Assembly (NCBI GenBank): GCA_963514005.1
Contig: OY740790.1
Coordinates: forward strand, 51,522,001-51,586,000
Length of the DNA: 64,000 nucleotides
From: Raja brachyura
Lineage: Eukaryota
Reading direction: 5' to 3'
In this document: one piece after another, positions 15,801-21,800 of the stretch
Position numbering within the stretch: the first letter of the stretch is position 1
Layout of the letters: the number at the start of each line of letters is the position of its first letter
Notes under the pieces: generated by a model
Told to the model about the DNA's origin: nothing
What the model saw: only the letters and a program-made list of their open reading frames with translations
Database searches by the model: none
Program-made: the position numbers and the translations under genes

Positions 15801-18800
15801 TGCTGAGTTCTTCTTGCAGTTTATCTTTTGCTTCAGTATCTCGCACTAGTTTTGTTTACCCTGTGCACGTAGCATAACTCTGCTACTCCATTTTGCAGTA
15901 TGTCTGCTAATTGTTGATGCTCAGAAACGATCAGTCAGAAGTGCATAAAACCATGAAAGGAATAGATCTGGTGGAGGCACACAGTCTCTTGCCCAGGGTG
16001 GGGGATCAAAAACCAGAAGGCATAAGTTTAAGGTGAGGGGGGGAAAGATTTAATAGGAATCTGAGGGGTAACTTTTTCCACACAAATGATGATGGGTGTA
16101 TGGAACTAGCTACCGCAGGAGGTAGTGGTGGCTGGGACGTTTAAGAAGCAATTAGACAGGTACATGGATAGGATAGATTTAGAGGGATATGGGCCATGCA
16201 CAGGCAAGTGCGACTTGTGCAGATGGGACATGTTGGTCGATGTGGGCACGTTGGGCCAAAGGGCCTGTTTCCACACTCTATGACTCTAATAAAGTAAAAA
16301 CATTGATTTGAAATGGTTTATTATTTAAAGGGCAATTGTGCTGATGAGACTGTTTTTAAAAGGGGATCCTAGTATTGATAAGATTTTCGGTAAAAAAGTT
16401 GTTAATTGTATTAACCTTTAGTAAGGCTCTTTTCAAAAGTGGGCCTCACTCCTTAAGAATGAAAGGATGATGTAAGAGGTAGGATTATATGCCCATCTAC
16501 TAACTGCAGCTGGCTACTCCAGCGTTCAGGTCAAAAGGTAGCAGTGATTGCCCTTGCGAGGAATTCTTTTGCTGTGCGGTTATTGGAAGGCAAATCAGTC
16601 TGAGTTGGGCTTTAACCCTTTCAAATCACTTGAGACCAAAACAAAGCATGGAAATATTGGTCCACGTTGTGTTAATTACGCTGGCTCTTAGCAATGCGCT
16701 GACACGTTTCGGGAATTCCGTGGAAGTGCACAAGCCCCACGCGGAATGGCTGAGCCTGTCCACCATTTTACAGCTGCACTCTGGCATGTTGGTCAAGCAG
16801 AATCATGCTGAGTTCCTGGGCATTTAGGTTATGGAACCTACTCCCAGATCCTGTACCAGATTAGACTCACCACAGGCTCTCTCAGCCGTGTCATTTGAAC
16901 AGGGGTTGCAGGGAAGAAACATAACAGCACTTGCATTGCTTTAACTACCTGTGTTCGGTGTGAGGTTTTATTTTAAAATCATTTGGCCAATGTTTTAGTA
17001 GACTTTTTTTGAACAAATTAATATCTAATTATTTGAAATGCTTTCATTGTTTATTACAATTTGACTAGCGTTAGAATGTAAAAGCATTAAGTCACGGGGA
17101 GATATAATTCCACATGCGGAGATTTAGGCAGTGAGGCTCGAAACAGTGCAGGCACAGAGATCCAGAAAAACAGCTTCTCGCACTTTCCTGCTTTAAATTT
17201 ACAATGAATGATTAGGATAACACAAATTCTTCCATGCTGTATTTATTAGCCTCTTAAGAGAGAAAAGAGATTTCCATTTAATCGTTCTAGTAGGGACTCA
17301 AACTGAAGTGTCATGACTTTGGGAAGCCAAATTCCCTTTTAATTCTGGCAACGGCCAAATTCTACCCTCCTTTAACATTCCTTCATCCTCATGCCTTACC
17401 TCAGCAGTGTGTTCTGGGAATTTTTCTTGACACCACCCAAAATCAGCTCCTCTTGCCAATGCATGAACTTCTTTGAGAATCCATGGCAGCCTCCAGTTAA
17501 TTCAGTGGGAATGTTAGGAGCCTGCAACAAAATTAACTATGTTTAATTATATATATTTAATAGCATCTCCATGATCTTTAAATTCACTTAAATATAGGTA
17601 CTATTTTCCAGTGCAGTTGACTGTGAAACAATGGTTCATCAAGTTACTTTGCATAGGCTTGAGTGGCTCCTTTCTTTAGATAATCAACACTTACTTGGGT
17701 CTAAACATCACTTCATGCACCAGATGAGTGCATGAGTAAAAACAATTGCTGAAGAGGGGGTCGGGGGAAACTTTTTTTCAATCTCTTACTTTGCCGGAGA
17801 TGCGATTTATTTCCGGATCGTATCTCCGGCCGCTCTGCCGCCTAACATCAAGGAGCTGGCGGTCTTGCTCCAGACTGACTTTCAGCCCCACCGCGGGGCC
17901 ATGGACTTACCATCGGAGCCTGCGATCCCTTGCCTGGGATCGGCGCTCCAACTGCGGCCTGCGGATTTCAACATCGAGGAGCTCGCAGTCTCAGGTGGAG
18001 GCTGATGTCAGGAAGCTGCAAAGTCGCAGGAGGTTCATCGGGGGAGCTGAGATCCTACCGACGCGGGAGCTTGATCGCCCCGATGCGTAGGGCTCGACCG
18101 CCGGCAGCAGGAGCCAAGATCGTCCCGTGAACGGAAGGCTCGAGGCCCCCGACCGCGGGCGGACAAAGAAGGGAAGAGATTGAACTTTTTCTTTCGCCTT
18201 CCACCACAGTGAGGAATGTGGAGGAGTCACTGTGGTGGATGTTTATGTTAAAATGTATTTTGTGTGTCTTGTTGCTTTTTATTGGTTTGCCTGCATGGCA
18301 AATCAAATTCCTCGTATGTTGCAAAACATACTTTGCGAATAAAGTATGATTATGATTATGAACAATGAGACGTTCCAGAATGAAAATGTACACCAGCATT
18401 TACCAGGCAAATAGATCTCACATACATTTAAATATCTATGTCTTGTGGCTGTAATTTCACTCCCAACAGTGAAGCTAAGTGTTTGAATTGTTAAGGACCA
18501 AAATTATCTAACGGTCCAAATAAATTGCCAATCAATATAACAAAAAAAAATTGCAATTGCTGGAAATTTGGAATCAAAAGAGAAAATGGTGGACACACGC
18601 AGCAGGTCAGGCAGCATCTGTGAAAAGAGAGACAGGTTTCTGAAAAAAGGCTTTTACCTGAAATGTTGTCTGGTTTCTCTTTCCACAGATGCTGCCTGAC
18701 CATATAACATATAACCATATAACCATATAACAATTACAGTTCTTGGTCACTAGATGTATATGCATTGTACAAAGACAGCAGAGTGTAATATCTTGCTTCA

Positions 18801-21800
18801 ATTCCACTCACTTTAATTTTAAAAGCAGAATGTTATGTAAACCTAGAACTATAACCATATAACAATTACAGCACGGAAACAGGCCATCTCGGCCCTTCAA
18901 GTCCGTGCCGAACAACTTTTTTCCCTTAGTCCCACCTGCCTGCACTCATACCATAACCCTCCATACCATTCTCATCCATATGCCTATCCAATTTATTTTT
19001 AAATGATACCAACGAACCTGCCGCCACCACTTCCACTGGAAGCTCATTCCACACCGCTACCACTCTCTGAGTAAAGAAGTTCCCCCTCATGTTACCCCTA
19101 AACCTCTGTCCCTTAATTCTAAAGTCATGTCCTCTTGTTTGAATCTTCCCTATTCTCAAAGGGAAAAGCTTGTCCACATTAACTCTGTCTATCCCTCTCA
19201 TCATTTTAAAGACCTCTATCAAGTCCCCCCTTAACCTTCTGCGCTCCAGAGAATAAAGACCTAACTTATTCAACCTATCTCTGTAACTTAGCTGTTGAAA
19301 CCAGGCAACATTCTAGTAAATCTCCTCTGTACCCTCTCTATTTTGTTGACATCCTTCCTATAATTGGGCGACCAAAATTGTACACCATACTCCAAATTTG
19401 GTCTCACCAACGCCTTGTACAATTTTAACATTACATCCCAGCTTCTATACTCAATGCTCTGATTTATAAAGGCTAGCATACCAAAAGCTTTCTTTACCAC
19501 CCTATCTATATGAGATTCCACCTTCAAGGAACTGTGCACGGTTATTCCCAGATCCCTCTGTTCAACTGTATTCTTCAATTCCCTACCGTTTACCATGTAC
19601 GTCCTATTTTGATTTGTCCTGCCAAGGTGTAGCACCTCACATTTATCAGCATTAAACTCCATCTGCCATCTTTCAGCCCATTTTTCCAACTGGCCTAAAT
19701 CACTCTGTAGACTTTGGAAATCCTCTTCATTATCCACAACACCCCCTATCTTGGTATCATCTGCATACTTACTAATCCAATTTACCACCCCTTCATCCAG
19801 ATCTTAGTGTATCTACCATTTTCTCGTCTGATTTCAGATTTTCAGCATTTTTTGAATTAATGCTTCCGGCATTAAATGAAATAAATTGCCTCCAGGGGCT
19901 TACCTCCAGTGATTTTTTGTTTCGGGCAGACACGGGGCATTCAGTGTCATCTGGTTGTAAGCAGAGCCTGTCCATGTAGGCATGTCCTACTTGTGCCTTA
20001 TCCAGCATCTCCCTGAATCCTTCCAAAGATGTAAATTGCCCCAGTTCATCCAGGAGCTGCACAGGGTCAAGGTTCATCCACTGAATGTCTGGCTTTCCTC
20101 TGTGGGAAGAAATATTTATTTAAGTCTTGCTGGCAGCATATATGCTTTTCTATCTCCAGTTAATACCAACTGATCTGGAGTCACTAGAGACTGCAGAAGC
20201 CGAATCTGTAGTAAAAATGAAGCAGAGCTGTAAAAGGAACTTAGCAGGTCAGGCAGCATCTATGGATGGAAATGGCCAGTTGACGTTTTAGGTGGAGAGC
20301 CTTTGTTTCAACTGGGCAGTTTACATGGAGGGCATCGACCTGAAAAGTTGCCATCTATTTCCCTCCACAGATTCTGCCTGACCCGTAGAGTTCCTCCAAC
20401 AGCTCCTTCAATTATTTTTTTCCAAACTCTGACCTGTATCCATGAGCCCGCAAACAGGCTGAACAAACTGTGCATTAACTGTATCAGTTATCTTGTGGGA
20501 TAAGTTCCATCTCACCGTGTGGTGGGCCTTGGAAAGCAAAGATCCTATAGCAAGCAAGATAGCCCACTCGACGAAAAAGAACATAATACGGTCATGGGCA
20601 GATTCATGGGTAATTTTCGGCCCCATTTCCGTAACCAGCTTCCGTCTCCGCACCAAAGATCCCATAGCAGAGCAAAGATACTAGTGCGGAGACGGAAGCC
20701 AGTTACGGAAACATCCTCGTAAAAATAAAAGTTATTTGGTAAAAATCTCCTCATTTCCATAATTATAATTTATTAACACAAACTGTACCCCTGCAATGTT
20801 GATTACACTGCGAGTCGGGTCGGATCGGGTCGGGTTACATTCCACTCCGTTGCGTACTACACGTTAGCCCATTGCATTTAGCAGGAGTGGTCTATCTTGC
20901 TCCGCTATAGGATCTTTGACGGAAAGGTTGTTGCATGGTCGCCCAACAGGTTATATAATCAAATTCCAGTCTTGACTGGCATTTAGAGTCAACTTTGATG
21001 GTTCTTATCAAAGCCAGTAGATGGAGTGCTGCACTGATGGGCAACTCAAAAGTTAATTGCTCATGGTAAAACATTCATTATCTCTATTGCAAAACGTTAA
21101 TGATATTCATCATTAGAAGACAATGTTCCCTGCAGAAAAACAAATCATTACTCTCAATAGTGGCCATCTCCCCAACTCCACCTGACAAATAGGAGAGTGT
21201 TGAATCTTTGAGCTGGCAAACACAATTTCTCACACTGAAGATAGAACCTAAATCACATGTACATGTGATTCTCCCCAAACAACTCAGTGCTGTTGAAAGG
21301 CACCATCTGACATAACCCCCGTGACCCAAGCAATCCCTATCTCCAATCTTTGGCAACTTTGAATTGTTGAAATGTTTCCTAATTATCATAGCCACTACTT
21401 CAAAATTACTTTGTTGGCTGTGAAATGCTCTTGCGATTGCTCACAAGGACACAAAAGGCTCCACACAAATACATTTTTAACATTTCTTTCTAACTGTGGC
21501 GCGGGACTCCTTGACAAGAGTCCCACCCTCATGCTAACTTTATTGCTGGTTTCTGGACGTAATGCCAGGTGTTATAAGTATTTTGCCAGGTTCCTTCAAA
21601 GTTCCTTTGAACAACTGAAATAGCTTTTGGAACTTTTTCAATATAACGAGGCAGTTGTCATTTACAGGAGTTTCAATACGTGCTTCCATCAATCATTACC
21701 TCCTGTGAATCTTTTCTTGATGGGTCCCATCTTAATTTTATGTATAGGTTTTTACGCAATGTATCAGTGAGAGTTGGGCATGTTGGAGGAGTCACCAAGC

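Follow-up and report, generated by a model that had tools for sequence, protein, structure and literature searches.

In L1 3' transduction, an element is found together with its unique 3' flank at a new site. Related outcomes are described for DNA repair: in the model of duplication-dependent strand annealing (DDSA; Fiston-Lavier 2007) a broken repeat uses an ectopic copy for its repair, and duplications result (PMC3276153, PMC3420103), and repair that starts by homology and is completed by end joining copies sequence lying past the homology (PMC5386867). For long interspersed nuclear elements (LINEs), the platypus account lists 40 U6-L2/Mon-1 template-switch chimeras, mostly with a short L2 part and with a target-site duplication (TSD) in 72.5% of cases, together with one CR1 chimera from turkey that it leaves unresolved (PMC4476161). 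Similarly, template switching is proposed for the 5' extensions of the short interspersed nuclear element (SINE) SINEU, with recombination named as the alternative (PMC4494074). Here we describe an insert at 18701–19803, on the minus strand of a 64,000-nucleotide stretch of Raja brachyura DNA (contig OY740790.1, positions 51,522,001 to 51,586,000; hereafter the window), in which the 3' part of a CR1 element is followed by 110 bases of unique DNA from beside another CR1 copy and then by a second CR1 tail. The insert most likely arose through repair between neighbouring young CR1 copies, with tail-primed template jumping as a live minority case. A literature search of partial coverage, which does not establish absence from print, returned no report of a CR1 tail-flank-tail insert.

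The alignment 18739–19803(-) against 42519–43591(+), 98.8% identical over 1073 columns, is the sole young duplication in the self-BLAST of the window, the runner-up being a match of 81% over 316 bp. Read on the minus strand, the insert runs from CR1 body through tail 1 and the 110 unique bases to tail 2, and this tail-flank-tail order, put forward in the original prediction, is borne out by both the self-match and the alignment. The five substitutions and the single tail-unit difference that it counted between the two copies are also recovered, at donor positions 42534, 42788, 42811, 42927 and 43259 and as one 8-nt unit fewer in recipient tail 1. Likewise, translation confirms that the two copies share the frameshift that terminates both at MLPGFNS*, past which the family protein P0001 continues. 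Over its full length the 111-nt unique segment is matched twice in the window, and no further hit is better than E 0.76. Flank and tail 2 meet at one shared base (C, 18739/43591), and tail 2 overlaps the target by 2 nt. Tail 2 is a four-unit CR1 tail that exceeds the donor tail in length, and its first 30 nt equal the entire donor tail; its proposed CR1 origin is supported, although any copy of the family would have the same letters. The recipient structure is real as first described, and it is a single event with one instance. An assembly chimera, in which reads of the neighbouring copy, running 110 bp into the flank, filled a gap in a real CR1 at 18.7 kb, would leave the same mosaic of markers as that described below; the window does hold two irregular gaps, of 183 and 157 N, and 110 bp is about one short-read length. 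Nevertheless the nearest N lies more than 5.8 kb from the insert, the 1-nt overlap of flank and tail 2 would be unusual for overlap-based joining, and the copied part is not identical to the donor, with a substitution at 43259 and a difference of one tail unit; we regard such an artefact as quite improbable.

The direction of transfer is from 43.5 kb to 18.7 kb, because the recipient holds a copy of the donor right TSD and the DNA beyond it. The assignment of this copy as donor, already made from its single tail and a possible TAGTT TSD, is upheld: TAGTT stands at the true ends of the element, and the 110 bp continue at 43.6 kb with no second tail. On the left side TAGTT abuts the true end of the element because homology to L001, a related CR1 in a public contig (79% nucleotide identity), begins at 41587–41589 of the donor. 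A chance 5-mer fit within a 12-nt window occurred in 3.6% of 20000 draws, and TSDs of CR1 and L2 peak at 3–5 bp (PMC4245944). The reverse transfer, from 18.7 to 43.5 kb, is ruled out by the donor extending 932 bp further 5' and having a TSD. Compared with L001 the donor has deletions of 3 nt and about 43 nt in its 5' part, and it also carries the frameshift at 43022–43024. Within the window the family has no further copy besides the donor and the recipient, which lie 23 kb apart. Derivation of both copies from a third source, an element whose own 3' end (a subfamily 3' untranslated region, UTR) includes the 110 bp, would allow the shared frameshift to be a subfamily trait; however, the donor TSD closes at the first tail, so that the 110 bp are target DNA there, the 43.5-kb copy is devoid of a second tail, and the reading frame stays open across the frameshift site in P0001 and in four other close relatives. 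Such a source is therefore very improbable. The coordinates of all features are collected in Table 1.

Table 1. Features of the recipient insert, the donor CR1 and the surrounding target.
Feature	Position	Strand	Basis
Recipient CR1 3' part (reverse transcriptase C-terminal half, end of open reading frame 2, 3'UTR), 5'-truncated	18872..19803	-	alignment and translation against P0001
Recipient 5' half, with four of the five donor differences; putatively of independent origin	19300..19803	-	no change against family protein
Recipient 3' half, putative donor-derived tract with three donor-shared lesions	18872..19299	-	translation against P0001
Predicted 3'UTR stem-loop of recipient (donor equivalent 43412-43453)	18869..18910	-	fold prediction
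Tail 1	18850..18871	-	alignment
110 bp from donor 3' flank, including donor right TSD copy	18740..18849	-	alignment
Tail 2, 39 nt, from stem-loop base	18701..18739	-	alignment and fold prediction
Donor CR1, 5'-truncated, decayed	41587..43480	+	Pfam, alignment with L001
Donor TSD TAGTT, 5 bp	left 41582..41586, right 43479-43483	+	sequence and L001 boundary
Native 3' flank copied into recipient	43481..43591	+	alignment
Patched-like gene intron holding the insert	17522..19903	-	exon motifs; insert 100 nt past 5' splice site
Target palindromic element, left remnant	19804..19850	.	comparison of arms
Target palindromic element, right remnant	18555..18700	.	comparison of arms

The origin of the two halves of the recipient body was addressed by translating the recipient and donor pieces separately against P0001. 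Recipient residues 227–395 show no difference from this protein (0/169), and the donor carries V232M and H324R in the same interval. Further 3', the recipient shares three lesions with the donor, namely the 1-nt frameshift near 19299, D435N near 19180 and K505N near 18968, while V474L, also 3' of the frameshift, is private to the donor. Family states were taken from those stored proteins that reach 60% identity, 41 out of 239. The donor states M232, R324 and L474 occur in none of the aligned relatives (0/12, 0/33 and 0/26, respectively); D435 is found in 26 of 33, all six closest among them, with N435 in 6 more distant ones, and K505 in 6 of 19, among which are the three closest. All shared lesions lie 3' of 43021, and four of the five positions at which donor and recipient differ precede the first of these lesions on the 5' side. 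When origin as a whole copy of the donor was simulated (200000 runs), the observed pattern had p 0.037, and a Poisson model favours a mosaic with a Bayes factor of 5.3–19.2, placing the switch point at 42799–43014 (5–95%, donor coordinates). From this distribution, the donor contribution seems confined to the 3' half of the insert, and the recipient 5' half may stem from an independent CR1 insertion.

The history that we favour, giving it about an even chance, is a one-sided gene conversion into a pre-existing CR1 that was finished by end joining, a hybrid repair of the DDSA or synthesis-dependent strand annealing (SDSA) type. The anatomy, the direction of transfer, the marker positions and the orientation are observed; from them we infer a resident copy, a break, an invasion and a join. 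A 5'-truncated CR1 of about 1 kb would have inserted by target-primed reverse transcription into an intronic palindromic repeat, and tail 2 would be the own tail of this first-inserted element. A break near the 3' end of the resident CR1, during integration or later (the two are not distinguishable), would have left a body-side CR1 end that invaded the nearest copy of the same family, 23 kb off, and acquired donor lesions over about 430–650 bp. Synthesis would have continued across the donor tail and 110 bp of its flank before release, and end joining at a single nucleotide of microhomology would have linked the released end to its partner, left with a 39-nt tail too short to anneal. Such a route accounts for the nearby donor, the one further family member in the window being the partner expected of a homology search, and likewise for the capture of 110 nt lying behind a same-family tail. 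The junctions display the features of this kind of repair, with CR1 homology at the 5' side and the 1-nt overlap at 18739 on the other. As in DDSA, a repeat break would be repaired on an ectopic intrachromosomal copy with duplication of flank; in contrast, the DDSA duplications are kb-scale and from Drosophila, and the locus described here holds 110 bp of unique DNA and a 1-nt join to a residual tail (PMC3276153, PMC3420103). Similarly, hybrid SDSA/end-joining repair involves synthesis that outruns the homology and is finished by end joining, although it is described with engineered reporters in human cells and not, as here, from two CR1 copies in one fixed germ-line sequence (PMC5386867).

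Several observations weigh against this reconstruction. The Fisher test gives p 0.14 with all markers and 0.40 with the polarised markers, the simulation gives p 0.079 with only two shared markers, and the mosaic signal depends on one near-identical reference protein. The synonymous changes at 42788 and 42927 are unpolarised, and if both arose in the recipient the split becomes 3:2, as for a whole copy; in addition, the donor-private change at 43259 lies inside the supposed donor-derived tract. The beginning of tail 2 no more than 3 nt from the base of the stem-loop would be a coincidence under a random break (about 1 in 10 by our own estimate), and the route needs an unseen intermediate single-tail allele. 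In our judgement the mosaic counts about 10-fold for repair and the stem-loop about 3–4-fold for reverse transcription, while the strand of the donor counts against an RNA template.

The stem-loop is a new point in favour of the original prediction. It held that reverse transcription was primed on a CR1 tail and switched template, and it did not consider homology-initiated DNA repair into a resident CR1; its interpretation is partly supported. In the donor 3'UTR the predicted outer stem pairs 43412–43420 with 43445–43453 at probabilities of 0.61–0.94, the z score of the whole fold being only -1.8, and the first base of tail 2 corresponds to donor position 43451, no more than three bases from the foot of this stem. 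This is where a reverse transcriptase (RT) initiated on a tail would meet the structure and could stall. A tail-primed CR1 RT would accordingly have stalled after about 39 nt and jumped to RNA of the donor locus, or to an exposed DNA strand, ending 110 nt past the tail; in a variant, donor read-through RNA bound by the ORF2 (open reading frame 2) protein would have been copied from its inner tail and then re-entered from its 3' end. The agreement of the first 30 nt of tail 2 with the whole donor tail and the 2-nt microhomology at the 3' junction are in keeping with such a jump, as are the short-tail template-switch chimeras reported for L2-clade elements (PMC4476161) and the template switching proposed for CR1-tailed SINEs (PMC5729268). 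The insert also has the layout of these chimeras, a LINE 3' end at the 3' junction and same-orientation foreign sequence 5' of the tail. Tail-only insertions could have served as a precedent for stalling, and 2 of 10 related tails in the window looked so; both are interrupted or deleted SINEs, and therefore RT stalling is neither supported nor opposed by them.

The strand of the donor is an obstacle to a jump of this kind. Exons of a Patched-like gene are spread over the minus strand between the start of the window and 31.4 kb. Pfam Patched or sterol-sensing matches were obtained for 2 of the 5 host exon peptides tried, the other 3 being unrecognised, and beyond these two matches the name of the gene is presumed from sequence motifs. 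The insert is sense to this gene; the donor, on the plus strand, runs antisense to it and lacks a 5' end of its own. Host pre-mRNA is ruled out as template, since RT needs the donor sense strand, which is antisense to the gene. The read-through RNA of the same locus that the original prediction invoked is possible but could only be an antisense transcript relative to that gene, unseen and arising from a 5'-truncated element. A motif search found no host exons upstream of 31.4 kb, and the argument stands whether the donor is intronic or upstream of the gene. In contrast, repair fits an antisense donor because no transcript is required. No A-tract follows the flank, the only signal-like hexamer being ATTAAA, 78 nt upstream of the 43591 junction. 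A landing behind a same-family tail only 23 kb off is unexplained by a non-homologous jump; it becomes explicable if CR1 protein bound the donor RNA, but the closeness then needs a nascent antisense transcript, and the marker pattern demands a second, homologous switch.

The whole insert also has no TSD, as judged by comparison with the other palindrome arm and in agreement with the original prediction; about 2–6 target bases are lost and none is duplicated. This sets it apart from the TSD-bearing majority of the platypus U6-L2 chimeras (PMC4476161) and from the CR1/L2 size peak quoted above (PMC4245944), although it is not decisive against template switching, for 27.5% of the platypus chimeras have no TSD either (PMC4476161). 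U6-L2/Mon-1 of platypus and anole (PMC4476161), PittSINE (PMC5729268) and SINEU (PMC4494074) resemble the insert in carrying foreign sequence 5' of a short tail derived from a LINE that requires its own 3' end. They differ in that abundant small RNAs were captured, mostly with TSDs, whereas here a neighbouring copy of the same family and its flank were captured. Taken together, the RT jump is an unlikely account, yet the strongest of those set beside repair, and a jump made by RT is the part of the original interpretation that the landing site, strand, markers and want of poly(A) leave in doubt. Even so, a tail-primed route would amount to a variation on a process already described, the novelty lying in the kind of DNA captured. 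Comparison with L1 3' transduction leads to a similar distinction: an element and unique 3' flank are at a new site in both, but the insert has neither poly(A), a polyadenylation signal near the flank end nor a TSD, and it ends in a second CR1 tail. The view that plain poly(A)-type transduction does not fit is thus supported. A broader proposition, that stalling at the element's 3'UTR stem-loop is routine for CR1 RT and is followed by a jump to the 3' ends of read-through RNAs made by dead copies nearby, is in our view doubtful.

The target itself permits an account with no reverse transcription. The insert splits a palindromic element, as the original prediction noted, but its claim of an exact site is too strong: the insertion point is known to a few bases only, because the palindrome arms are about 73% alike. 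A break in such a long palindrome could have been patched in one step with 42519–43591 and the donor tail then re-copied, by serial template switching or a process of the polymerase-theta type. Target loss, the missing TSD, overlaps of 0–2 nt at every junction and the 30-nt match of tail 2 to the donor tail are all consistent with this. Nonetheless, the insert ends precisely in a four-unit CR1 tail longer than that of the donor, no homology would guide the choice of donor, and the markers favour a non-donor 5' half; a one-step capture thus has little likelihood.

The affinity of the element was established from its RT. The donor RT domain matches Pfam RVT_1 (E 7.6e-35), and its closest relative among the 120 matches listed of 6251 is P0001, of 518 aa and 98% identical. 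The domain is of the non-LTR (long terminal repeat) type and nearest to RT proteins of rays, sharks, turtles and birds among the matches listed (Hypanus sabinus, 75%). Among the 120 matches listed a second near-identical family protein was absent for both a shorter query (best 91% over 128 aa) and a longer one (best 67%). The label CR1 is presumptive and appears in no search output. The predicted 3'UTR hairpin, subject to the fold score given above, is followed by a tail of 8-nt units, and CR1 3'UTRs are described as having a hairpin and then an 8-bp microsatellite, the hairpin being thought to bind CR1 RT (PMC5729268). In public genome contigs the family tail pattern had 0 matches, and a protein scan of 31 candidate stretches yielded two loci, L001 and L002. 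The first overlaps only the 5' part of the donor and served to fix its boundary; the second was not used. The L001 fragment (963–1760, 79% identical to the donor) lies in a contig of a bacterial assembly and is probably vertebrate contamination, and proteins labelled Klebsiella and Carnobacterium look the same.

Other repeats of the window were also recorded. A SINE family of about 310 bp has a CR1-like 3' hairpin and a different microsatellite (13067–13366, 36349–36659, 38600–38828, 43847–44156, 47607–47923 and others). SINE copies short of part or all of the 3' hairpin lie at 7800–7935(-), which is internally duplicated, and at 43850–43900(-). In an old SINE at 22460–22915(-), two near-copies of the tail hairpin's 3' arm enclose about 135 bp that make up half of a palindromic element; besides the insert this is the second instance of foreign DNA separating body from tail, and it is too diverged to resolve. 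Abundant palindromic repeats contain a hammerhead-like minimal core (11 occurrences of the pattern, with 20 shuffles averaging 1.15) at positions including 5605, 12009 and 62460 (+) and 56033, 54803, 35921, 11906 and 9481 (-), with palindromes at 9391–9574 and 27830–28012. The element split by the insert resembles this repeat family. An Rfam scan gave 7 matches, all under the gathering score and none a hammerhead. Hammerhead motifs mark Penelope-like elements in fishes (PMC4209133), and the palindromic repeats of the window may be Penelope relics rather than miniature inverted-repeat transposable elements. In the same intron, just downstream of the insert, a CpG-rich stretch (17740–18400, observed/expected up to 0.92) may represent either a regulatory island or a young repeat. 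Finally, four host exons lie between 18701–19803 and 41587–43591, which together make a head-to-head inverted repeat and a potential substrate for inversion; the exons are currently in normal orientation.

The signature of tail, flank and tail is easily scanned for, and the question is directly testable because the repair and RT models predict different donors, junctions and alleles. If CR1 RT did stall routinely, inserts of this kind would be expected repeatedly across the genome, each with a second tail that starts at the stem-loop base, and a LINE that requires its own tail would have a tail-flank-tail route by which to transduce host DNA locally. Were the jump true of this insert, CR1, which is thought to need its own 3' end, could still move host DNA in CR1-dominated genomes. 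If instead repair is the true origin, the locus would illustrate, cleanly and on a small scale, how young LINE copies that lie close together serve as templates for repair and move unique DNA, and an element found together with its flank would by itself be no proof of transduction.

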